Below, in pieces: positions 3,325 through 27,070 of a stretch of DNA of 27,070 nt; position 1 is the first letter of the stretch, and the number at the start of each line of letters is the position of its first letter. Below the pieces are notes generated by a model. The model did no database searches. It was not told the DNA's origin and saw nothing but the letters and a program-made list of their open reading frames with translations. This DNA comes from a virus (lineage: Duplodnaviria > Heunggongvirae > Uroviricota > Caudoviricetes), in the IMG/VR virus record IMGVR_UViG_2651869694_000009, positions 1 to 27,070 of that record; one strand, given 5' to 3'. A program made the position numbers and the translations under genes.

Positions 3325-4377
3325 ATGAAAAATACTGTAAAAATAAACAGTGTTGATTTAATCAACGCTGATTGCCTGCATTTTATTCAGTCCCTGCCTG
3401 ATGATTCCATTGACCTGATTGTTACCGATCCGCCTTACTTCAAAGTGAAACCTAACGGTTGGGACAATCAGTGGAAAGGGGACGAAGATTACCTTAAGTG
3501 GCTGGACCACTGTCTGGCCCAGTTCTGGCGGGTGTTAAAACCTGCCGGAAGCCTTTACCTGTTCTGTGGGCATCGCCTGGCATCTGATATTGAGATCATG
3601 ATGCGTGAACGTTTCAACGTGCTTAACCATATCATCTGGGCGAAGCCGTCCGGACGTTGGAATGGGTGTAATAAAGAAAGTCTGCGCGCATATTTTCCTG
3701 CCACAGAGCGCGTTCTGTTTGCTGAACATTACCAGGGGCCATATCGCGGCAAAAGTGACGACTATGCGGCAAAAGAAAGGGAACTCAAACAGCACATAAT
3801 GGCACCGCTGATATCGTATTTCAGGGATGCTCGTGCCGAACTGGGTATAACGGCAAAACAAATTGCCGAAGCCACAGGTAAGAAAAATATGGTTTCCCAC
3901 TGGTTTGGTGCCAGTCAGTGGCAGTTGCCGAATGAGGCTGACTATCGGAAGTTACAGGCACTGTTTTCCCGTATAGCGGCAGAGAAGTTTCAGGAACAAC
4001 AACTGGAACAACCACACCACCAGCTGGTGGCATCTTATGATTCACTGAATCGCAAATATTCTGAATTGCTGGATGAGTTTAAATCTCTCCGGCGCTATTT
4101 CTCCGTATCAGTCTCCGTGCCTTATACCGATGTCTGGACGCATAAGCCCGTTCAGTTCTACCCGGGTAAACATCCGTGCGAGAAACCGGCGGATATGCTC
4201 CGGCAAATAATCAATGCCAGTAGTCGACCTGGTGATCTGGTTGCTGATTTCTTTATGGGATCCGGTTCCACAATAAAAGCAGCAATGGCGCTGGGGCGTC
4301 GGGCGTTAGGTGTTGAACTTGAGTCAGAGCGGTTTAATCAGACGGTGAAAGAGGTAAGTGAACTGGTGGGGAAATAA
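3325..4377 (+). CDS. Orphan DNA methyltransferase, beta-class (N6-adenine or N4-cytosine), PF01555-like
   Basis: Catalytic motif IV DPPY near the N-terminus (LIVTDPPYF) and AdoMet-binding motif I near the C-terminus (DFFMGSGST). That order defines beta-class amino-methyltransferases. No restriction endonuclease partner is visible. Confidence 0.85.
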   Translation: MKNTVKINSVDLINADCLHFIQSLPDDSIDLIVTDPPYFKVKPNGWDNQWKGDEDYLKWLDHCLAQFWRVLKPAGSLYLFCGHRLASDIEIMMRERFNVLNHIIWAKPSGRWNGCNKESLRAYFPATERVLFAEHYQGPYRGKSDDYAAKERELKQHIMAPLISYFRDARAELGITAKQIAEATGKKNMVSHWFGASQWQLPNEADYRKLQALFSRIAAEKFQEQQLEQPHHQLVASYDSLNRKYSELLDEFKSLRRYFSVSVSVPYTDVWTHKPVQFYPGKHPCEKPADMLRQIINASSRPGDLVADFFMGSGSTIKAAMALGRRALGVELESERFNQTVKEVSELVGK

Positions 4378-5799: not shown

Positions 5800-6426
5800 T
5801 CAGTTGTCAAATGAATATACGTTAAAGGTATATGTCGACATAATTTCACCAAGTACCTCAATACATACACTTTTTTTATGAAAATTACTGGGAAATGAAC
5901 TTAGCTCCTCAAGACATTGCACATAAGTGCTGATATCACTTGCATCACGTTCAAGGAATTTCACTTGACCAAAAGAAGGAGTTTTAATCTTGGTTCTTTG
6001 CTGGATTATATGGATAAAGTGTGTAGTTGGTGAAACTATTACTCTTGAAATATCGGAAATGATGTCTTCTTGAACTTGCCGATAAAGTAAATCCTTTGGG
6101 TAATGGTGTTTTATCTCGATGGTTGCAACATTGCCATTATGTTCAGACGTTAATATCGACTGGTTATAAAGTGATATGTCAACAGCGCCGATACCGAGTT
6201 TTGGATGCTCACTTAAAGCAGTTAGTGTGCTGATTTGATTGAGTATAACAACTAACTCATCACGTATTTGTGTTTCATGTTTGCGATTGTAGAAGTAGCC
6301 ATTCAGTTCATTTAACTTTTTATGCATCCTATCGTGACTAATTGCTTCGATCAGTAAATCCTGAATCATACTTTTCTCTAGGTAATCCGAACGGTTGTAA
6401 GTGACAGTATTGTGCTGGCATGTCAT
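5800..6426 (-). CDS. Hypothetical protein (208 aa), downstream gene of an AT-rich moron operon; possible PD-(D/E)xK-type nuclease
   Basis: Long ORF in DNA of about 32-37% G+C, where stop codons are frequent and long chance ORFs are unlikely. Contains GIGAVDISLY ... VATIEIKHH (D83, E104, K106), compatible with a PD-(D/E)xK core. Start uncertain because no clear SD precedes ATG 6426. Confidence 0.6.
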   Translation of the reverse strand: MTCQHNTVTYNRSDYLEKSMIQDLLIEAISHDRMHKKLNELNGYFYNRKHETQIRDELVVILNQISTLTALSEHPKLGIGAVDISLYNQSILTSEHNGNVATIEIKHHYPKDLLYRQVQEDIISDISRVIVSPTTHFIHIIQQRTKIKTPSFGQVKFLERDASDISTYVQCLEELSSFPSNFHKKSVCIEVLGEIMSTYTFNVYSFDN

Positions 6427-6469: not shown

Positions 6470-6805
6470 TCATCGATAGAAAAACTTTACAGCCCACTCG
6501 TAAACAGCTTTGTAAATCGGTTCATGGTAAATACTATCGATACTATTCAGATGTGCGATCATCGCCTCCACAGTTGTAGTGGTTGTTTCTAATATTTCGA
6601 TTATTGCAGGGCGGTCATCATCTTCATCGAAGTATTCGAACAGCAGTACAGGTTTACCATGCAATTCAGCATCTGAGACTCTAAGGTTACAACTACCGCT
6701 CAACTCAAAGTGAATTTTGTAATTACCTTCTACAGAATGGCCTACGGGGAAAAAGTATAGGGTGTCATCTTTGTTCAAAAGCCATTCCCATTCATAACTA
6801 TTCAT
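6470..6805 (-). CDS. Hypothetical small acidic protein (about 111 aa), upstream gene of the AT-rich moron operon
   Basis: ORF on the same strand, 43 bp upstream of the 208-aa gene. The preferred start is the second ATG (6805), preceded by AGGAG with a 7-nt spacer; the ORF track starts at 6823. Acidic patch FEYFDEDDDRP and a TTTT run. Confidence 0.6.
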   Translation of the reverse strand: MNSYEWEWLLNKDDTLYFFPVGHSVEGNYKIHFELSGSCNLRVSDAELHGKPVLLFEYFDEDDDRPAIIEILETTTTTVEAMIAHLNSIDSIYHEPIYKAVYEWAVKFFYR

Positions 6806-6955
6806 TTGTGAACTCCTGTTCATTGAGTTTCAACAACTATCAACTACATCCAGCGAAGCATAAAAGATCGTTTATGGCAAAACCGGAATGGAGTGCGATT
6901 CGATTCTGAGAAGGGTGCCACGTATCGTACGCGAACCATCCAAGAGGATTATGCA

Positions 6956-16974: not shown

Positions 16975-17243
16975 TGAAAGAGCTTGAGTTAAAGAAACCG
17001 ATCACTGCTCATGGCGAGACACTCTCCGTACTGGAGTTTGATGAGCCCACCGGGAAAGATGTCCGCGAGCTGGGGTATCCCTACCAGATGAATCAGGATG
17101 AGTCCGTCAGACTTCTGGCGCATGTGGTGTCGAAATACATTGTGCGGCTGGCGAAAGTGCCGCAAAGCTCTGTCGACCAGATGTCTCCGGCAGACATGAA
17201 TGCAGCGGCGTGGCTTGTGGCTGGTTTTTTCCTCCAGGCCTGA
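16974..17243 (+). CDS. Tail assembly chaperone, short form
   Basis: 89 aa between tube and tape measure. Its 3' end carries the slippery heptamer T_TTT_TTC (17225-17231). Confidence 0.75.
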   Translation: MKELELKKPITAHGETLSVLEFDEPTGKDVRELGYPYQMNQDESVRLLAHVVSKYIVRLAKVPQSSVDQMSPADMNAAAWLVAGFFLQA

Positions 17244-17392
17244 CGGCTGAATACCTCACTGATCGCTTCTTTGACTGCGCCAGCTACTGGCACATTAATC
17301 CCTTCGAATTGCTGAATATGCCGATCAGTGAAATTCCCTTACTGGTCAGTCAGGCAAACAGGATAGAGCAGGAGAAACGCACACATGGCTGA
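16974..17392 (+). CDS. Tail assembly chaperone, -1 frameshift-extended form
   Basis: After a -1 slip at 17225-17231 the reading continues FPPGLTAEY... in the frame of ORF 17210-17392 and ends at TGA 17390-17392, overlapping the tape-measure start. Confidence 0.65.
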
Positions 17393-19220
17393 ATTTGAGC
17401 TTAAGGCGTTGATCACCGGTGTCGACAGGCTTTCTCCCGCGCTGTCGAAAATGCAAAAGAAAATCCGGGGATTTAAACGCCAGGCGGAAGAAGCGTCACA
17501 GGGTGGGCTGGCGCTTGGTGGCGGACTGGCTGCGGGTCTGACGCTTTCCCTGAAATCTTATGCCGATCAGGAAAACGCCGCCACCGGGCTGAAAGTTGCC
17601 ATGATGGATGCGAACGGTGAGGTCGGAAAGAGCTTTCAGGACATCAATAAACTGGCTATTGGTCTGGGTAACCAGCTACCCGGTACAACGGCTGATTTCC
17701 AGAACATGATGCAGATGCTGGTGCGTCAGGGGATCCCGGCAGAAAACATTCTGGGCGGTGTGGGTAAAGCGACAGCTTATCTTGCGGTACAACTGAAAAA
17801 AACACCGGAAGCGGCTGCCGAGTTTGCCGCAAAGATGCAGGATGCTACCGGAACGGCGTCAGAAGACATGATGGGGCTGTTCGACACTATCCAGAAGGCG
17901 TTTTATCTGGGCGTTGACGATACCAACATGTTGTCCTTCTTCACTAAAACCAGCTCTGTTCTGAAGATGGTGAACAAGGACGGTCTTCAGGCTGCACAGA
18001 GCCTTGCCCCCATCAGCGTCATGATGGATCAGATGGGGATGAACGGGGAATCGGCAGGTAACGCCCTGCGAAAAGTTATCCAGTCCGGATTAAGCGTTAA
18101 GAAAATCAGGGACGTCAATAAAATCATGGCCCGCCAGAAACTCGGGGTACAGCTCGATTTTACTGACGGCAAAGGGAGTTTTGGCGGTCTTGATAACATG
18201 TTCAGGCAACTGGCAAAGCTGCGAAAACTGACCGACGTTAAACGAACTGGTGTACTTAAGGCAATATTTGGTGATGATGCCGAAACCCTTCAGGTGGTCA
18301 ATGCACTAATCGATAAAGGAAAGGATGGCTACGATCAGATCCAGCAGAAGATGAATAAACAGGCCAGCCTGAATAAACGTGTTCAGGCACAGCTTGGTAC
18401 GCTGTCCAACCTGTGGGAGGCAATGACGGGGACCGCAACTAACGGTCTTGCAGCTATTGGCGGCGCATTTTCTGGTGACGCTAAAAATATCACGCAATGG
18501 CTGGGGGAGTTGGGGGAAAAATTCACGAAGTTTGCGGATGAAAATCCCCGGGTTATTCGCGGCGTCGTCGGGCTTGCTGCCGGTCTTGCGATTCTGAAAC
18601 TGGGATTGATGGGCGTGGGCAGTGCCATCAGCATTGTCAGCAGGATCATGTCGATGACGCCGATTGGCATGATTGCGACGGCGATAGCCCTGGCTGCGGG
18701 ATTAATTATCACTAACTGGGATGTTGTCGGACCTTATTTCAAGAAGCTCTGGGAAACCATTGGTCCTTATTTTGAGGCTGGCTGGGAACTCCTTAAGAAA
18801 GTTTTTGCCTGGTCGCCGCTGGGGATGGTGATCAATAACTGGGGACCGGTTGTTAAGTGGTTTCAGGATATGTGGGATAAGCTGAAGCCGATTATTGAAT
18901 GGTTTACCGACAGTTCCGGTGACACGGTCGATACCATTAACTCGGCGCAGTGGGGCGCGGGTGCTTATGATGCTTATGGGACGGGAATACCGGCACGGGG
19001 ATACACACCTTATCAGGCGGTAGATCCGGCTCAGTCAAACAACGCCTCCGATGCCACAGGCCCGAATCCCTTCATGATCAACAAAGCTTCTGCGCCAAAA
19101 GTTGATGGTGAGATCAAGGTCTCTTTTGTGAATTCGCCTCCGGGTATGCGGGTTATGGAAACGCGATCCAGCGGTTTTGATGTCAGCCATGATGTTGGCT
19201 ATACGCGCTTTGGCAGGTAA
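17385..19220 (+). CDS. Tail tape measure protein
   Basis: 611 aa, Ala/Gly-rich with predicted helical and membrane-like segments, downstream of the frameshifted chaperone. Confidence 0.85.
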   Translation: MAEFELKALITGVDRLSPALSKMQKKIRGFKRQAEEASQGGLALGGGLAAGLTLSLKSYADQENAATGLKVAMMDANGEVGKSFQDINKLAIGLGNQLPGTTADFQNMMQMLVRQGIPAENILGGVGKATAYLAVQLKKTPEAAAEFAAKMQDATGTASEDMMGLFDTIQKAFYLGVDDTNMLSFFTKTSSVLKMVNKDGLQAAQSLAPISVMMDQMGMNGESAGNALRKVIQSGLSVKKIRDVNKIMARQKLGVQLDFTDGKGSFGGLDNMFRQLAKLRKLTDVKRTGVLKAIFGDDAETLQVVNALIDKGKDGYDQIQQKMNKQASLNKRVQAQLGTLSNLWEAMTGTATNGLAAIGGAFSGDAKNITQWLGELGEKFTKFADENPRVIRGVVGLAAGLAILKLGLMGVGSAISIVSRIMSMTPIGMIATAIALAAGLIITNWDVVGPYFKKLWETIGPYFEAGWELLKKVFAWSPLGMVINNWGPVVKWFQDMWDKLKPIIEWFTDSSGDTVDTINSAQWGAGAYDAYGTGIPARGYTPYQAVDPAQSNNASDATGPNPFMINKASAPKVDGEIKVSFVNSPPGMRVMETRSSGFDVSHDVGYTRFGR

Positions 19221-19243
19221 TGAAAAATTAATCTGTTAATGAG

Positions 19244-19265
19244 TCCCACTCCGGTGGGATTTTTT
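19244..19265 (+). terminator. Intrinsic terminator after the tape measure gene
   Basis: Stem TCCCAC (19244-19249) / GTGGGA (19254-19259) with loop TCCG, followed by TTTTTT (19260-19265). Confidence 0.55.
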
Positions 19266-19280
19266 ATGTACGGAGTTTAT

Positions 19281-20609
19281 ATGACGTGGAAAGACAGACT
19301 TCAGGACGCGTCATTTCGCGGTGTGCCGTTTAAGGTTGAAGAAGAAAGTGCGGGAACCGGTCGCCGTGTGGAAACACATGAATACCCGAACCGCGACAAA
19401 CCCTATACCGAAGACCTGGGGAAAATCACTTTCCGCCCGTCCATCACGGCTTATGTGGTGGGAGATGACTGTTTTGACCAGCGCGATCGCCTGATTGACG
19501 CGCTGAATAAACCCGGTCCCGGCACGCTTGTCCATCCGACATACGGTGAGCTGAAAGTCTGTGTTGACGGGGAAGTTCGGGTCAGCACATCGAAAAGTGA
19601 AGGACGTATTGTCCGCTTTGACCTGAAGTTTGTCGAAGCAGGAGAGCTCTCTTACCCCACATCAGGTGCGGCGACGGCGCAGACGCTGATGTCATCCTGT
19701 TCTGCACTGGATGACTGCATCAGTGACAGCTTCAGCGGTTTCAGTATCGATGGCGTGGCGGATTTTGTGCAGAACGACGTCGTCGGTAATGCCAGCATAA
19801 TGCTTGGGTATGTTTCTGATGCGATGAAAGTGGTGGATTCTGCCGTATCGGATGCCGCCAGGCTGTTGCAGGGGGATATCTCGGTACTTCTGCCGCCGCC
19901 ATCGTCAGGCAAAAATTTCGTTGAGCAGGTGCAGAAAATGTGGCGTACCGGGAAACGCCTTTATGGTAACGCCAGCGACCTGGTCACCATGATCAAAACG
20001 CTTTCCGGTGTCAGCCTCGGCAGCGATCTGCAACCGCGCGGCGTCTGGAAAACGGACAGTAAAACCACCGCCACGGCGACGCAGCAGCGTAACGTGGTTG
20101 CCAGCACCCTTCGTACGACCGCAATCAGCGAAGCGGCGTATGCCGTCACCCGATTGCCTGCGCCAACAACTTCCGCGGTGATGCAGAATGCCGCAGTGGG
20201 GCAGGCAACAACACCTGCGCAGAGCACTGGCTGGCCTTCCGTCACGCATCCGGCACTGAACAATGCACCGGCGGTGAAAAACACGGTTGACCTGCCGACG
20301 TGGGAAGAACTGACTGACATTCGCGACACACTGAATACGGCAATTGATAAGGAGTTGTCCCGTACAACCAGTGATGCGCTGTTTCTGGCGCTGCGCCGGG
20401 TGAAAGCAGATCTGAATGCGGATATCAACACGCGCCTTGAACAGTCTGCACGGATCATTCAGCGCACACCGGATGAGGTTTTACCCGCGCTGGTGCTGGC
20501 GGCGACCTGGTTTGATAACGCGGCGCGTGACGCGGACATTATCCGGCGTAATGCCATTACGCATCCCGGCTTTGTGCCGGTGATCCCTCTGAAGGTGCCA
20601 GTGCAATGA
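19281..20609 (+). CDS. DNA circularisation protein (Mu gp43 / gpN-like tail protein)
   Basis: N-terminal motif WKDRLQDASFRGVPF...HEYPNRD is typical of this family. ATG 19281 is preferred because the ORF-track start (19239) lies inside the upstream terminator. Confidence 0.8.
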   Translation: MTWKDRLQDASFRGVPFKVEEESAGTGRRVETHEYPNRDKPYTEDLGKITFRPSITAYVVGDDCFDQRDRLIDALNKPGPGTLVHPTYGELKVCVDGEVRVSTSKSEGRIVRFDLKFVEAGELSYPTSGAATAQTLMSSCSALDDCISDSFSGFSIDGVADFVQNDVVGNASIMLGYVSDAMKVVDSAVSDAARLLQGDISVLLPPPSSGKNFVEQVQKMWRTGKRLYGNASDLVTMIKTLSGVSLGSDLQPRGVWKTDSKTTATATQQRNVVASTLRTTAISEAAYAVTRLPAPTTSAVMQNAAVGQATTPAQSTGWPSVTHPALNNAPAVKNTVDLPTWEELTDIRDTLNTAIDKELSRTTSDALFLALRRVKADLNADINTRLEQSARIIQRTPDEVLPALVLAATWFDNAARDADIIRRNAITHPGFVPVIPLKVPVQ

Positions 20610-21685
20610 ACGATAACGTCACGCTACGGGTAAATGGCCGGGAGTGGAATGGCTGGACATCGGTGCGTATTGGTGCCGGCATTGAACGGCTGGCGCGGGA
20701 TTTCAGCGTGGAGATCACCCGCCAGTGGCCGGGGGATGAGGGTATCACCACACTTCAGCCGCGCATTAAAAACGGTTCAAAAGTGGAAGTGCTGATTGGT
20801 GATGAGCTGGTGATCACCGGCTGGGTGGAGGCGACCCCCGTTCGTTACGATGCCCGTTCGGTCAGCACCGGTATTGCCGGGCGTAGTCTGACTGCTGACC
20901 TGATTGACTGTGCAGCCGAACCGACACAGTTTAACGGACGATCGCTGGTACAGATTGCGCAGGCGCTTGCTGCGCCTTTCGGCATTGAGGTGGTGAACAG
21001 CGGTGCGCCGTCGGGTGTTATTCCTGACGTCCAGCCTGATCACGGCGAAACGGTGATTGAGGTGATCAACAAAATACTCGGTCAGCAGCAGGCGCTGGCT
21101 TATGACGACCCGCACGGCAGGCTGGTGATTGGTGGTATTGGCTCAACGCGGGCACATACCGCGCTGGTACTCGGGGAAAACATCCTTTCCTGCGATACGG
21201 AGAAGAGTATCCGGGAGCGGTTTTCTGTTTACCAGGTGGCGGGGCAGCGTGCCGGAAACGACGATGATTTCGGTGAGGCCACCACCACCGCGCTGCGGGC
21301 CCGCACAGAGGACGCATTTATTGCCCGTTACCGTCCGATGTATATCAGGCAGACAGGGCAGGCTACGGGGGCAGGCTGTATTGCCCGTGCGGACTTTGAA
21401 GCCCGACAACGGGCGGCGCGGACGGATGAAACCACCTATGTGGTGCAGGGCTGGCGACAGGGTAACGGTACGCTGTGGCAGCCCAACCAGCGGGTGATTG
21501 TCTTTGATCCGGTCTGTGGTTTCGACAATACCGAACTGCTTGTTTCGGAAGTCACGTTTACTCAGGACCAGAACGGCACCCTGACGGAAATCCGTGTCGG
21601 CCCACCTGATGCTTATCTGCCTGAACCCGAAGCCCCCGGCGCGCGGAAAAAGAAAAAAGCCAGAGTACAGGAGGATCCGTTCTGA
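20606..21685 (+). CDS. Baseplate hub protein (Mu gp44 / gpP-like)
   Basis: 359 aa in the Mu-like baseplate gene order. Confidence 0.7.
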   Translation: MNDNVTLRVNGREWNGWTSVRIGAGIERLARDFSVEITRQWPGDEGITTLQPRIKNGSKVEVLIGDELVITGWVEATPVRYDARSVSTGIAGRSLTADLIDCAAEPTQFNGRSLVQIAQALAAPFGIEVVNSGAPSGVIPDVQPDHGETVIEVINKILGQQQALAYDDPHGRLVIGGIGSTRAHTALVLGENILSCDTEKSIRERFSVYQVAGQRAGNDDDFGEATTTALRARTEDAFIARYRPMYIRQTGQATGAGCIARADFEARQRAARTDETTYVVQGWRQGNGTLWQPNQRVIVFDPVCGFDNTELLVSEVTFTQDQNGTLTEIRVGPPDAYLPEPEAPGARKKKKARVQEDPF

Positions 21686-22233
21686 TGAGGACGATTGAAG
21701 CCATGCAGCGACAACTCCTCGGCCTGATTGGGCGGGCCGTGGTGAAAAGCATCAGTGCCGCCACGAAATGTCAGACCGTGGATGTGTCCCTGATTGCCGG
21801 TGAACCCAAAGCCGGGATTGAACATCTTGAACCCTACGGTTTTACCGCAAGGGCAAACAGCGGTGCGGAAGCGGTGGTGTTGTTTCCGTATGGCGACCGT
21901 TCTCATGCGGTGGTTGTTACGGTGTCGGACCGGCGCTACCGCCTGAAAGGGCTGCAGACGGGGGAGGTGGCTGTCTATGACGATCAGGGGCAGTCCGTGA
22001 CGCTGACCCGGGCGGGGATCGTGGTGGACGGTGCAGGTAAAACGATTACGTTTCGCAATGCGCCTAAAGCACGTTTTGAAATGGACCTGGAAGTGACCGG
22101 ACAGGTGAAAGACCTGTGCGACTCCGGCGGCACCACCATGTCAGCGATGCGGCTTGCCTATAACGGGCATCGTCACAGAGAGAACGGTCAGGGCAGTAAC
22201 ACCGACAAACCTGATAAAGCGATGGAGGCATGA
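21685..22233 (+). CDS. Baseplate spike / assembly protein V (Mu gp45-like)
   Basis: 182 aa in the Mu-like baseplate gene order. Confidence 0.7.
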   Translation: MRTIEAMQRQLLGLIGRAVVKSISAATKCQTVDVSLIAGEPKAGIEHLEPYGFTARANSGAEAVVLFPYGDRSHAVVVTVSDRRYRLKGLQTGEVAVYDDQGQSVTLTRAGIVVDGAGKTITFRNAPKARFEMDLEVTGQVKDLCDSGGTTMSAMRLAYNGHRHRENGQGSNTDKPDKAMEA

Positions 22234-22658
22234 TGGAACTGTGGCTGACGGTGAACGGTAAACGCACCTGCGCCAGCGCACCGCTGGATCCGCTGACCCG
22301 CGCCGTGGTGATTTCCCTGTTTACCTGGCGGCGGGCGGAGCCTGATGACAACGCCGACGTCCCGATGGGATGGTGGGGGGATACCTGGCCTGCGGTACAG
22401 AATGACCGTTACGGCTCCCGACTGTGGCTGCTTCAGCGCAGCAAACTGACCAATCAGCTGGTGCAGACGGTAAGGGGGTATATCCGCGAATGCCTGCAAT
22501 GGATGATTGATGACGGCGTGGTGTCCCGTATTGATCTGGATATCCGCCGCACCGGGATTAATGAACTGGGTAACAGTATCACTCTCTGGCGTCGTGACGG
22601 ACCGGTAATGATTTCTTTTGATGATCTGTGGAGTGCGATAACGCATGGCGGACAGTGA
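22230..22658 (+). CDS. Baseplate protein (Mu gp46-like)
   Basis: 142 aa in the Mu-like baseplate gene order. Confidence 0.65.
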   Translation: MMELWLTVNGKRTCASAPLDPLTRAVVISLFTWRRAEPDDNADVPMGWWGDTWPAVQNDRYGSRLWLLQRSKLTNQLVQTVRGYIRECLQWMIDDGVVSRIDLDIRRTGINELGNSITLWRRDGPVMISFDDLWSAITHGGQ

Positions 22659-23703
22659 ATTTCAGCGCCCGACGCTGGCAGAAAATATCAGTATGCTCCG
22701 TAACGATTTATTCGCCAGGCTGGACGTCAGCGACACGCTCCGGCGCATGGATGAAGACGTGCGGGCAAAGGTGTATGCGGCAGCGCTGCATACGGTTTAC
22801 GGGTACATCGATTATCTGGCAATGAATATGCTGCCTGACCTGTGCGATGAGTCCTGGCTGGCGCGACATGCTGCGATGAAACGGTGTCCGCGCAAGGGGG
22901 CCACGGCTGCCAGCGGGTATATGCGCTGGGAAGGTGTCAGCGATGGCCTGAAGGTGACTGCCGGGAGCGTGATTCAGCGCGATGACCTGGTTCAGTACAC
23001 GGCAACTGCCGATGCAACCAGCTCCGGTGGTGTCCTGCGCGTGCCGATCGCCTGCTCAAGTGCAGGCGCGGTCGGTAACGCTGACGACGGTACGGCATTA
23101 ATCCTGGTCACGCCGGTGAATGGTCTGCCGTCTTCCGGTGTGGCTGACACCCTGACAGGCGGATTTGATACTGAAGAGCTGGAAACGTGGCGCGCCCGCG
23201 TCATTGAGCGGTATTACTGGACGCCGCAGGGCGGGGCTGACGGGGACTATGTCGTCTGGGCTAAAGAAGTGCCCGGCATTACCCGCGCATGGACATACCG
23301 TCACTGGATGGGAACGGGAACTGTCGGTGTGATGATTGCCAGCAGTGACCTGATTAATCCCATTCCGGAAGAATCAACGGAAACGGCGGCAAGACAACAT
23401 ATCGGGCCACTGGCCCCGGTGGCAGGCTCTGATTTGTATGTGTTCAGGCCGGTGGCACATACGGTGGATTTTCATATCCGCGTGACGCCGGACACACCGG
23501 AAATACGGGCTGCCATCACCGCGGAGTTGCGTTCGTTCCTGCTGCGTGATGGTTATCCGCAGGGAGAACTGAAGGTATCGCGTATCAGTGAGGCGATTTC
23601 CGGTGCGAACGGGGAATACAGCCATCAGTTGCTTGCACCGGCAGACAATATCTCCATTGCAAAAAATGAACTGGCGGTACTGGGGACGATTTCATGGACG
23701 TGA
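22645..23703 (+). CDS. Baseplate J-like protein (Mu gp47-like)
   Basis: 352 aa in the Mu-like baseplate gene order. Confidence 0.75.
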
Positions 23704-24278
23704 CAAACGATGATTACATCCGTCTGTTGTCGGCACTGTTGCCCCCCGGTCCGGCGTGGTCAGCCAGCGATCCGTCGATTGCCGGTGCGGCACCGTCATT
23801 AACCCGAGTTCATCAGCGTGCGGATGCCCTGATGCGGGAGCTGGATCCGCGCACCACCACTGAACTGATAAACCGCTGGGAGCGTCTGTGCGGTCTGCCG
23901 GATGAATGTATTCCCGCAGGGACACAGACCCTTCGCCAGCGTCAGCAACGGCTGGATGCGAAGGTTAACCTGGCGGGCGGCATCAACGAGGATTTTTATC
24001 TTGCACAGCTTGCTGCCCTGGGCAGACCAGATGCCACCATCACGCGATACGACAAAAGCACCTTCACCTGCTCATCGGCCTGTACTGACGCGGTGAATGC
24101 GCCGGAATGGCGGTATTACTGGCAGGTCAACATGCCAGCTGCCACCAACACCACCTGGATGACATGTGGTGATCCCTGTGATTCCGCACTGCGTATCTGG
24201 GGCGACACCGTTGTCGAGTGTGTGCTTAACAAACTCTGCCCTTCGCATACCTACGTAATTTTTAAATATCCGGAGTAA
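23694..24278 (+). CDS. Tail protein (Mu gp48-like; matches e14 YmfQ in size and position)
   Basis: 194 aa directly upstream of the tail-fibre gene, as in e14. Confidence 0.65.
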
Positions 24279-24281
24279 TCC

Positions 24282-25064
24282 ATGCATCGTATAGACACGA
24301 AAACCGCGCAGAAGGATAAGTTCGGCGCGGGTAAGAACGGTTTTACCCGTGGTAACCCCCAGACCGGCACACCTGCCACCGATCTGGATGATGACTACTT
24401 TGACATGTTGCAGGAAGAACTCTGCAGCGTGGTGGAGGCATCCGGTGCCAGCCTGGAGAAGGGGCGGCATGACCAGCTGCTTACCGCGCTTCGTGCGCTG
24501 CTGTTAAGCCGCAAGAATCCGTTTGGCGATATCAAATCGGATGGCACGGTGAAAAGGGCTCTCGAAAACCTTGGTTTGGGAGAAGGTTCGGCATTACCCG
24601 TTGGTGTGCCTGTTCCGTGGCCTTCCGCCACTCCGCCAACAGGCTGGCTGAAATGCAACGGTGCCGCTTTTTCTGCTGAAGAATACCCGGAACTGGCAAA
24701 GGCTTATCCGACAAATAAATTGCCTGATTTACGTGGTGAGTTTATTCGTGGCTGGGATGACGGGCGTGGAGTGGATAACGGAAGGGGATTATTAACGCTT
24801 CAGGACGGTGCGATTGTCAGTCATAACCACTATTGGGGAATCTGGACTTCACGAACTAACGACCAGACTCTGGAAAGTTTTACAGGCACCACGATTTTAA
24901 AACAAATCACGCCCCTGTCTCCAGCCATTGACTTCGATAATTACCCAATTCCCAACCCGGCTATTACAGAGGGTGGTGTTGTTGCGGCAACGACTAAACC
25001 TGCAGGTGCGAATGAAACACGCCCACGAAATGTCGCTTTTAACTATATTGTGAGGGCTGCATAA
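24282..25064 (+). CDS. Tail fibre protein: constant N-terminal part fused to the variable C-terminal domain in the current orientation
   Basis: 260 aa. Conserved fibre N-terminus (MHRIDTKTA...[17 protein letters not shown]) and fibre-type C-terminal ending [11 protein letters not shown]. Contains the left crossover site at 24559-24584. Confidence 0.85.
24559..24584. repeat. Left crossover site of the invertible segment (pix/gix/hix-type, 12-2-12 bp)
   Basis: CTCTCGAAAACC TT GGTTTGGGAGAA. Positions 24571-24584 are a perfect inverted repeat of 26439-26452. The half-sites resemble Hin/Gin recombination sites. Confidence 0.75.
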
Positions 25065-25666
25065 TGAATAACGCAGAATTAAACAGTGAATTAATTGCCA
25101 CTATGGCAGGAGAAATTACTGTTTATAACTTTGACGTCATGAGTCGGGAGTATATTTCAGCTTCAACTGAATATCTTGCTGTTGGTGTCGGCATTCCGGC
25201 ATATTCCTGTTTAGATGCTCCAGGCACCTACAAAGCTGGTTATGCAATCTGCCGCTCTGCAGATTTTAACTCATGGGAATATGTACCAGACCATCGCGGT
25301 GAAATCGTCTATAACACCGAAACGGGAGACGCCAAAGAAATCACAACTCCGGGTGATTACCCCGAAAAAACAACCACTATCGCCCCGTTAACGCCATACG
25401 ATAAATGGGATGGTGAGAAATGGGTAACGGATACTGAGACACAGCATAGCGCCGCAGTAGACGCGGCAGAAGCACAGCGTCAGTCACTGATTGATACTGC
25501 AATGGCTTCCATCAGTCTGATTCAACTGAAATTGCAGGCCGGGCGGAAGCTGACGCAGGCAGAAACCACCCGACTTAACGCTGTGCTGGATTACATTGAC
25601 GCGGTGACGGCAACAGATACCAGCACCGCGCCGGATGTCATCTGGCCTGAACTGCCGGAGGCGTAG
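25064..25666 (+). CDS. Tail fibre assembly protein (Tfa, current-orientation partner)
   Basis: 200 aa. Its C-terminus (LDYIDAVTATDTSTAPDVIWPELPEA) resembles the conserved end of the convergent minus-strand paralogue. Confidence 0.8.
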   Translation: MNNAELNSELIATMAGEITVYNFDVMSREYISASTEYLAVGVGIPAYSCLDAPGTYKAGYAICRSADFNSWEYVPDHRGEIVYNTETGDAKEITTPGDYPEKTTTIAPLTPYDKWDGEKWVTDTETQHSAAVDAAEAQRQSLIDTAMASISLIQLKLQAGRKLTQAETTRLNAVLDYIDAVTATDTSTAPDVIWPELPEA

Positions 25667-26078
25667 GCCATTCAATATCTGGCGCACCGGAAGTATCGAC
25701 CAGTTCCAGTGCGTCCAGGTAATCCAGCCACAAATTATATTGCGCCAGTTCGTCACCTTTCAGACGACCAATAGCCGCTTTACCAGGCCATTGTTTACTG
25801 TTCATATAAACGTTGGCCTGATTAATCAATTGCTGCTTCTCCAATTCGGCTGCAGCAATTTGTTCCTCATGTGTTGGTGGTGGAATTTCGGACCATGCAG
25901 GAAAACCATTTTCTCCAGCGATACGGATTTTTCCTTTCGGCGGTAATCCGGAAAACTCAATATACACTTGCTCATCAACTTCAACAGCATCATCTGGCCA
26001 TGAGTCAGCTTGAGTGTAATCCTCTTTCATCTCCAGCGGATAGAAAGAGTTTGTAGTCGCGGAATATATGTAATTCAT
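25638..26078 (-). CDS. Alternative tail fibre assembly protein (partner of the alternative fibre C-terminus)
   Basis: 146 aa, convergent with the + strand Tfa. C-terminus LWLDYLDALELVDTSGAPDIEWPTPPA matches the Tfa family pattern. Confidence 0.8.
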   Translation of the reverse strand: MNYIYSATTNSFYPLEMKEDYTQADSWPDDAVEVDEQVYIEFSGLPPKGKIRIAGENGFPAWSEIPPPTHEEQIAAAELEKQQLINQANVYMNSKQWPGKAAIGRLKGDELAQYNLWLDYLDALELVDTSGAPDIEWPTPPAVQAR

Positions 26079-26099
26079 TTTTCACTCCATATAGCTAAA

Positions 26100-26447
26100 T
26101 TAACAGCCTAACGCTAAAAATGAAGCGCCGAGGCCAGGAGTACTGGCTCTGGATATAAATTTAACCGGGTCGGGACTAAAACCTGCACAGGCAATATAAC
26201 CAACAGCCCCGCTATCTGGTGTGTAGTCTTGTGAGACCAAAACACGCAGACATCTGTTTGGAAATGCAATCGGGAAATGGGTTACTACATCCTGTGCAAT
26301 GCCTGGTGCGCCGATTGAGCCCCACTGAAGAATAAAACCTGATGGTAATTTTTGATATCCAGTACCTGAAACAGAAAGCGTGAAGCTACCCATATCAGGT
26401 ATCTGATTCGCCCCTGTCCCTACATTCCTTTTAGCCGCTTCTCCCAA
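26100..26447 (-). CDS. Alternative tail fibre C-terminal domain, silent in the current orientation
   Basis: Open frame with no start codon of its own; the listed M is TTG coding Leu. Its first codons lie in the right crossover site and encode LGE, the same junction residues as the left site in the fibre gene. Confidence 0.7.
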
Positions 26448-26464
26448 ACCAACCTTTTAGAAAA
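26439..26464. repeat. Right crossover site of the invertible segment
   Basis: TTCTCCCAAACC AA CCTTTTAGAAAA, about 55 bp upstream of the invertase gene. Confidence 0.75.
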
Positions 26465-26518
26465 TGCAGTTATTCGGCTCAGATGGCATGATCCCGGATT
26501 TTTACAGGGTTATTTCTC

Positions 26519-27070
26519 ATGCTCATCGGCTATGTACGCGTGTCAACAAATGACCAGAACACTGCATTGCAACGAAACGCGCTGGAGTGCGCAGGATGTG
26601 AACTGATATTCGAGGATAAGATCAGCGGCAGAACGTCTGACAGGCCGGGCTTGAAGAAAGTACTCAGGACTCTGTCTGAAGGCGATACGCTGGTGGTCTG
26701 GAAACTGGATCGACTCGGTCGCAGCATGCGGCATCTTGTCGTTTTGGTGGAGGAGCTTCGGGAAAAGGGTATTAACTTTCGCAGCCTGACCGACAGCATA
26801 GATACGTCTTCACCAATGGGACGCTTTTTCTTCCATGTCATGGGCGCACTTGCAGAAATGGAAAGGGAGCTGATAGTCGAACGTACCAGGGCGGGATTGG
26901 CTGCGGCTCGTGAAGAAGGGCGAATAGGTGGGCGTCGATCAAAGCTAACTGATGAACAGTGGGCGCAGGCAGGCAGGTTGATTGCAGCAGGTGAATCACG
27001 ACAGCGTGTGGCATTAATTTACGATGTTGGGATATCGACGCTATATAAAAAATTTCCGGCAACCAGGTAA
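26519..27070 (+). CDS. pin: Site-specific DNA invertase (serine recombinase, Pin/Gin/Hin family)
   Basis: MLIGYVRVSTNDQNTALQRNAL... with the catalytic Ser in the VRVST motif and a C-terminal HTH. Very similar to E. coli e14 Pin as I remember it. Stop codon at the last three bases of the window. Confidence 0.92.
   Translation: MLIGYVRVSTNDQNTALQRNALECAGCELIFEDKISGRTSDRPGLKKVLRTLSEGDTLVVWKLDRLGRSMRHLVVLVEELREKGINFRSLTDSIDTSSPMGRFFFHVMGALAEMERELIVERTRAGLAAAREEGRIGGRRSKLTDEQWAQAGRLIAAGESRQRVALIYDVGISTLYKKFPATR

Follow-up and report, generated by a model that had tools for sequence, protein, structure and literature searches.

A complete tail-fibre inversion module of the e14 P type in an SfV-like prophage

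We analysed a 27,070-nucleotide stretch of DNA from a tailed virus (Caudoviricetes; IMG/VR record IMGVR_UViG_2651869694_000009, positions 1 to 27,070), referred to below as the window, in which an earlier note had described a tail-fibre inversion switch close to the right end. Judged from its sequence, the locus is a P-inversion module, and the prophage that carries it is of the e14/SfV type. Most probably this module is the switch by which an SfV/e14-like temperate myophage changes its tail fibre and thereby its host range, belonging to the Fis-dependent Din family and orthologous to the P segment of e14, and we give this reading a probability of about 0.9. All anatomical parts of the switch are present and have homologues in characterised systems, the catalytic and Fis-contact residues of its invertase, Pin, are intact, and related genomes carry the segment in both orientations. 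The switch is real and complete but ordinary: it is an already-known e14-type system from which nothing new is learnt about how DNA invertases work in biology, modules equivalent to it have been annotated across Escherichia coli genomes, and RefSeq already lists the Pin protein.

The invertible segment measures 1882 bp from core to core (24571..26452), the interval over which the strand switches in flipped relatives. Outside it lie the gene for a Mu gp48/YmfQ baseplate protein (23694-24278, plus strand; Pfam) and the constant N-terminal part of the fibre (24282..24570, plus strand; residues 1-96 and the first base of Leu97). The constant part is now fused to variable tip A (24573..25064, plus strand; Pfam Collar, 1.5e-15), which is related to the stfE fragment of E. 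coli K-12, and the two form a single open reading frame (ORF) with a Tail Collar domain (24282-25064, plus strand; Pfam). As sequenced, the locus therefore encodes a fibre of 260 amino acids with a Collar-domain tip, followed by the TfaE-like chaperone A of 200 amino acids (25064..25666, plus strand; Pfam Caudo_TAP, 1.2e-31), whose start overlaps the tip A stop and which is translationally coupled to the 260-residue Collar-tip fibre. On the minus strand are chaperone B (25638..26078; 146 amino acids; Pfam Caudo_TAP, 6.9e-37), predicted to be silent in the present orientation, and variable tip B (26100..26450; Pfam Gp53-like_C, 3.8e-15), which is silent and has no start codon and falls within an ORF classed by Pfam as a gp53-like fibre C-terminus (26100-26456, minus strand). 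Both cassettes are intact ORFs. Each of the two tips has its own Caudo_TAP chaperone by Pfam, in line with the claim of the earlier note that inversion would swap the fibre C-terminus together with its cognate chaperone.

The 14-bp perfect inverted repeat on which that note had built its case, TTGGTTTGGGAGAA at 24571-24584 on the plus strand and its reverse complement at 26439-26452, was reproduced at these positions in the window. The perfect match is in fact one base pair longer than claimed (15 bp, 24571-24585 / 26438-26452), and it belongs to an extended repeat of 24 nucleotides with 88% complementarity (24562-24585 / 26438-26461) that is the top-ranked inverted repeat of the region. The two 26-bp sites of 12-2-12 organisation were likewise found as described, at 24559-24584 and 26439-26464, and they can be aligned with pix, cix, gix and hix. 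The left crossover site (24559..24584) reads CTCTCGAAAACC TT GGTTTGGGAGAA, with its core TT at 24571-24572, and is identical to pixL of e14. The right crossover site (26439..26464) reads TTCTCCCAAACC AA CCTTTTAGAAAA on the plus strand, with its core at 26451-26452, and TTTTCTAAAAGG TT GGTTTGGGAGAA on the minus strand (26464-26439). The note had held that the two core dinucleotides differ (TT and AA), which is wrong and reflects a strand artefact: the plus-strand AA of the right site is the reverse complement of the plus-strand TT of the left site, and each core reads TT toward the segment. Identical cores are needed for religation after a 180-degree rotation, and hence for inversion.

A published table of Din-family sites gives pixL as TTCTCCCAAACC AA GGTTTTCGAGAG and pixR as TTCTCCCAAACC AA CGTTTATGAAAA (PMC3241671). 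The left site of the window is the reverse complement of this pixL at 26 of 26 positions, and the right site matches pixR at 23 of 26, all three mismatches lying in the outer half-site (CCTTTTAGAAAA). Both sites align with the hix, gix, cix, pix, mix and bix sites and have the identical cores in inverted orientation that mark the Din family, and the cix and gix sites taken from the P1 and Mu records fall in the same register as those of the window. When seven elements were compared, the inner half-site and the core proved invariant and the outer half-sites variable; the right-site variant of the window also occurs in two relatives, L001 and L043.

By itself, a repeat of 14-15 bp is not statistically remarkable. 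Of first-order Markov simulations of the window, 17% contained a perfect inverted repeat with arms of 14 bp or more lying no further than 3 kb apart, and the window holds another perfect 15-bp inverted repeat (CTGACGTCCAGCCTG, 21024-21038 / 22716-22730) inside two baseplate genes, where neither the AAACC-NN-GGTTT signature nor other features of an invertase site were found and which is probably due to chance. Both observations lend something to the explanation that the repeat is a by-product of two diverged fibre genes with a common GLGE motif and that no site-specific recombination takes place. Since the repeat alone is not significant, the case rests on the homology of the sites and on their genomic context. 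The site pair gains its significance because the left site contains the sole exact AAACC-NN-GGTTT of the whole window (24566-24577), because the sites are identical to pixL and match pixR, and because they adjoin an invertase gene; the 12-2-12 architecture, the identity to pixL and the invertase gene abutting the repeat are all unexpected of a by-product. With up to two mismatches, AAACC-NN-GGTTT occurs elsewhere in the window at chance level. A multiple-inversion system of the shufflon or Min type with extra crossover sites was rejected, as the 14-mer, with up to two mismatches allowed, is present at just two sites.

The reading frame across the sites is arranged such that either cassette can complete the fibre. 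The left site lies inside the tail-fibre gene at the codons for LGLGE, as had been claimed; these are residues 97-101, and the core TT makes up positions 2-3 of the Leu97 codon. The minus-strand ORF at the right site also has the form ascribed to it, lacking a start codon and opening with the same junction residues (TAA-AAG-GTT-GGT-TTG-GGA-GAA, or stop-K-V-G-L-G-E). In the frame of tip B, TAA stands two codons upstream of GLGE; no ATG or GTG start was found for the minus-strand ORF at the right site, and the TTG listed as its start was rejected, being merely the Leu codon of GLGE. Because the crossover falls in the Leu97 codon and the next four codons (GLGE) are common to both cassettes, both orientations are in frame. 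Simulated inversion gave an in-frame fibre of 213 amino acids with the gp53-like tip, followed by the 146-residue chaperone. The constant part provides the start codon, the ribosome-binding site and transcription to whichever tip is joined to it, and the cassette facing away is silent because it has neither promoter nor start codon.

Searches against the PDB matched tip A to the T4 gp37 tip and gp12 and, weakly, tip B to R-pyocin (R-pyocin/AP22 type) and phage fibre tips, and these different solved folds fit two receptor specificities. Through the switch, the particles released by a clonal phage population would carry one or the other of two receptor-binding tips. For annotation, this means that the silent minus-strand stretch at 26100-26450 is a genuine alternative gene end, not a pseudogene, that assemblies may differ in orientation here without being wrong, and that the fibre product depends on the orientation. 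The silent fibre fragment of one relative, L002 (strain 2014C-3075), is mis-annotated as an 'integrase' pseudogene. Within the segment, the convergent chaperone genes overlap by 29 bp (25638-25666), like tfaP and tfaE of K-12, and an 18-nucleotide inverted repeat (89%; 25585-25602 / 25711-25728) corresponds to the homologous coding sequence of the chaperone C-termini (LDYIDAV and LDYLDAL). The G+C content of the segment is 0.42-0.47 (24700-26500), compared with 0.55-0.63 in the baseplate genes, which fits a module of different origin.

Both orientations of the segment exist in sequenced E. coli genomes, with breakpoints inside the repeat. The flipped arrangement was simulated, and 600-bp junctions were searched against 5,426 complete E. 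coli genomes, a genome being counted when at least 80% of the junction was covered. The left junction was found in its observed form in 513 genomes and in its flipped form in 382 (up to 99.3% identity, in a single piece), and the right junction in its observed form in 120 and in its flipped form in 766. Two relatives, L007 (strain WP4-S18-ESBL-09) and L011 (an IMG/VR contig), have flanks 97-98% identical to those of the window and the segment inverted between them. In both, the flank alignment stops at 24585 and the inverted alignment begins at 26461, which places the strand switch inside the 24-bp repeat; the homology of flipped relatives switches strand within 24562-24585 and 26438-26461. 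The flank with the constant part is 97-98% identical in relatives of either orientation. The exact right-site variant of the window is joined in L043 (strain STEC17-183) to cassette A in the OFF position, and the protein family of chaperone B occupies the ON position in L002 and L007. Hundreds of genomes with the exact flipped junction, strand switches inside the repeat and the experimental demonstration of inversion at this sequence in e14 (PMC12529663; PMC4272514) all speak against a by-product of a shared peptide motif; such a coincidence is contradicted by the junction data and was rejected, and its probability is close to nil.

These comparisons also set the precision of the claim that both crossover sites had been resolved to the base. 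The exchange is placed within the shared repeat by the comparative data, and to this extent the claim stands; the exact base follows from homology only, exchange at the central dinucleotide being what would be expected from knowledge of the family, in which cleavage points have been mapped in other systems.

The recombinase is encoded next to the right site. The pin gene (26519..27070, plus strand) specifies a DNA invertase of 183 amino acids, a small serine recombinase of the Din family (Pfam Resolvase, 8.3e-51; HTH_7, 8.6e-13), and is preceded by a spacer (26465..26518, plus strand) presumed to hold the promoter and ribosome-binding site of pin. The Pin protein can be aligned from end to end, with no gaps, with the Gin structure 3uj3 in the PDB (8.9e-92). 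At the amino-acid level it is 86.9% identical to K-12 PinE, 81.4% to P1 Cin and 79.2% to Mu Gin, and it is 100% identical to WP_023568707.1 (RefSeq, E. coli APEC20/16). With nucleotide and amino-acid identities to K-12 pinE of 74% and 86.9%, pin is best regarded as an allele distinct from pinE. The catalytic residues Tyr5, Arg7, Ser9, Asp64, Arg65 and Arg68 are all present, and positions 106 and 114 have the wild-type His and Met; in the crystallised Gin (3uj3), the chains have Val at 114. In Hin, residues K47, R48, K51, Q151, R154 and L155 contact Fis or the enhancer and are conserved solely in invertases (PMC3798978), and their equivalents in Pin (K46, K47, R50, Q150, R153 and L154) are all conserved.

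The 5' part of pin, where the earlier note had suggested that Fis-binding enhancer sequences be sought, contains a predicted recombinational enhancer (26537..26608) with two matches to the Fis consensus 48 bp apart, in the stretch that corresponds to the annotated enhancer of P1 cin. Fis site I is TGTCAACAAATGACC (26541-26555) and site II is GCGCAGGATGTGAAC (26589-26603), the 48 bp being measured from centre to centre. The consensus KNNYRNNWNNYRNNM is matched at nucleotides 23-37 and 71-85 alike in pin, cin, gin and pinE, that is, at the same codon positions, and the P1 record annotates nucleotides 19-90 of cin, which align with nucleotides 19-90 of pin, as the enhancer. At sequence level pin therefore carries the two-Fis-site enhancer that is characteristic of the Din family; homology supports the enhancer, short of proof, and Fis binding to it is predicted. 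The distance from the right core to the ATG of the invertase gene is 67 bp in the window, in Mu gin and in K-12 pinE, and as it is the same in three elements, the site-to-enhancer geometry is conserved.

By analogy with the family, inversion would proceed as follows. Pin dimers would bind the inversely oriented pair of 26-bp sites, while host Fis would bind its two sites 48 bp apart in the first 90 bp of pin, and the three elements would assemble into an invertasome on supercoiled DNA. Ser9 of each subunit would then cut the central TT with a 2-bp stagger, one pair of subunits would rotate by 180 degrees, and the ends would be religated, as identical cores would permit. The cleavage chemistry, the Fis dependence and the activity in this host are thus what the family would lead one to expect.

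Several observations weigh against an active switch in this very copy. The Fis sites coincide with codons for the best-conserved region of the enzyme, which deprives their conservation of independent weight, and conservation at third codon positions is barely higher in the enhancer stretch (0.66 versus 0.55, one-sided p = 0.053, from twelve sequences that are not independent); this synonymous-site test is at most suggestive of constraint at the DNA level. A recognisable sigma-70 promoter was sought between the right site and the pin ATG, and no strong consensus match was found. The right outer half-site is off consensus at the two bases adjacent to the core, GG instead of CC. Decayed copies of the switch occur in relatives, with a frameshifted pin in L043 (3867-4415 of that sequence) and a frameshifted chaperone gene (tfa) in L002 (4587-5636). 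Moreover, inversion is observed for homologous elements, from which that of this copy would be extrapolated. No perfect flipped twin, exceeding 97% identity in the two cassettes as well as the two flanks, was found, the nearest being L007 and L011 with flanks at 97-98% and cassettes at 94-96%. Among complete E. coli genomes, the highest coverage of window positions 23700-27070 was 92%, at 96.9% identity, and a 31-mer spanning the right site and the spacer had no exact match in genome_contigs.

The missing promoter match, the degenerate half-site and the decayed relatives would suit a fossil switch, whose parts look intact but whose segment is locked in the sequenced orientation, with pin unexpressed or the right site unused, and it is in keeping with such a fossil that wild-type K-12 cultures hold the e14 P segment mostly in one orientation (PMC12529663). 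Against it, Pin is full length and keeps every catalytic and Fis-contact residue, and both cassettes are intact. L043 has the right-site variant of the window fused to the other cassette, and the functional hixR (TTTTCCTTTTGG), one of the listed Hin recombination sites (PMC3241671), shows a degenerate outer half-site of the same kind with GG beside the core. Other Pin-type invertases in the same cell can, in addition, work in trans (PMC12529663; PMC4134206). Given the intact parts and the flipped relatives, a locked fossil is unlikely, and a working host-range switch is the more probable reading.

Of the known inversion systems, the P segment of e14, inverted by PinE, is the closest. The e14-type P inversion was reportedly described by Plasterk and van de Putte in 1985. 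More recently, TTGGTTTGGGAGAAGG and its complement were reported to bound the 1797-bp P segment of e14, which PinE and PinQ invert according to sequencing and quantitative PCR (2025; PMC12529663), and read mapping showed the same phase variation of e14 in 2014 (PMC4272514). The window shares with it the gene order ymfQ, fibre, tfa, tfa', fibre' and pin (in K-12: ymfQ, stfP, tfaP, tfaE, stfE' and pinE), an identical left site, an identical inner half-site and core, a right site matching at 23 of 26 positions, and the core-to-ATG distance of 67 bp. The constant fibre part in the left flank has 96.8% nucleotide identity to K-12, tip A is 94% identical to K-12 stfE' on the opposite strand, and chaperone A has 86.6% nucleotide identity to tfaE. 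Since the tip and chaperone expressed here are homologous to the silent stfE'/tfaE of K-12 on the opposite strand, the orientation is opposite to that of MG1655, with the StfE-type tip ON. The window also differs from e14 in cassette B, which consists of the gp53-like tip and the 146-residue chaperone instead of stfP/tfaP, in its pin allele (74% nucleotide and 86.9% amino-acid identity to pinE) and in the length of the segment (1882 bp versus 1797 bp).

A further difference is that the window belongs to a prophage with a full late region, whereas e14 is a remnant. The structural module upstream of the switch (7400-24560) is 97.5% identical to Shigella phages SfI, SfII, SfIV and SfV, and the remaining window encodes the antiterminator Q, lysis genes, a terminase and a portal protein. 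From this gene content, the element has the appearance of a late region belonging to a complete temperate myophage and not that of a remnant.

This bears on whom the switch would benefit. With the same mechanism, the advantage might fall to the host, inversion altering the prophage fibre protein of the lysogen and thereby blocking the adsorption of other phages. K-12 is reported to become resistant to T2 when the P segment of e14 inverts at the repeat also found in the window, and this inversion rises during T2 infection and is reversible (PMC12529663); the constant region and the stfE-like tip of the window are homologous to those of e14. However, the defence data come from e14, not from this element, and e14 is a defective remnant, whereas the late region here is complete and, at 97.5%, identical to those of SfI, SfII and SfV, the fibre being a late part of the virion; the second cassette is also unlike the stfP/tfaP pair of K-12. 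This explanation concerns the benefit, not the mechanism, and the apparent completeness of the prophage makes it less natural here, so we regard it as a minor possibility beside a switch of phage host range. In the light of the recent e14 work, the switch may also alter the susceptibility of the lysogen to other phages (PMC12529663).

The G segment of Mu, inverted by Gin, resembles the module in its layout, with constant Sc followed by Sv-U, U'-Sv' and an invertase gene transcribed away from the segment. Its 26-bp sites are of the same family, the 5' end of its invertase gene holds the enhancer, with Fis-consensus matches at the same nucleotides, the core is 67 bp from the start codon, Gin and Pin share 79% identity, and the window has Mu-type baseplate genes (gp45-48) upstream of the switch. 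In contrast, the gix core is TC/GA, not TT/AA, the G segment is about 3 kb long and codes for far longer fibres, and the gix sites are identical over 26 bp, whereas the outer half-sites of the window differ. The C segment of P1 and P7, inverted by Cin, shares the core TT/AA, has a similar inner half-site (GGTTTAAGAGAA in P1/P7, GGTTTGGGAGAA in the window) and an annotated cin enhancer at nucleotides aligned with those of pin, and encodes an invertase 81% identical to Pin; it differs in the placement of cin, which flanks the segment on the opposite side with its 3' end overlapping cixL, and in the segment length of 4.2 kb. Salmonella Hin and its hix sites agree with the module in enzyme family, in the residues that contact Fis and the enhancer and in the core-adjacent GG of the degenerate hixR half-site, but Hin flips a promoter, not gene ends, and hin is located within the invertible segment.

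Tail-fibre modules of P2-like prophages are a further parallel, and their inversion has been seen directly in PacBio reads (EC958 Phi2; PMC4134206). One such prophage, L008 in E. coli HH194M, carries the same segment of 1887 bp with the same inner half-sites: window positions 24566-26452 align with L008 2512-4398 at 98.0% identity as one inverted piece, and the homology stops at the cores. In L008, however, the constant part of the fibre is unrelated, as is the remainder of the tail module (P2 type), and the invertase gene has 74.7% nucleotide identity to pin. We tentatively consider that the two-cassette module moves as a unit between unrelated phage tail systems with the crossover sites as joints, a possibility that we hold to be real but doubtful. 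If it were true, exchange by an invertase acting in trans, or exchange through very short homology at the sites, would shuffle receptor-binding modules among co-resident prophages. Modular exchange of this kind is said to have been proposed by Sandmeier in 1994, and we know of no mechanistic demonstration of it. The sharing with L008 and the homology breaks at the cores fit this old idea of module exchange between tail systems.

Scans of the window for tRNAs and Rfam families returned no match, and the phage record ON470584 is partial and rearranged and was uninformative. Three minus-strand ORFs stand in the otherwise plus-strand late region: one at 1632-2651 (339 amino acids), right after the antiterminator Q gene, and two at 5800-6426 (208 amino acids) and 6470-6823 (117 amino acids), between the endolysin and the HNH/terminase genes. 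No Pfam match was obtained for these three, just PHROG families of unknown function, and they resemble cargo of the moron type. A large HNH endonuclease (phrog_96; 227-1222), a DNA methyltransferase (3325-4377) and a second, small HNH endonuclease beside the terminase (6893-7306) are ordinary for this phage group. Two overlapping short ORFs (16974-17243 and 17210-17392) are located between the tail tube and tape-measure genes, an interval that is the usual place of a tail chaperone pair made by programmed frameshifting. The last bases of the window (27068-27070) are the pin stop codon, and the attachment site and whatever follows pin (mcrA in e14) would lie beyond it. The relative L043 adjoins an icd fragment and iraM, as e14 does.

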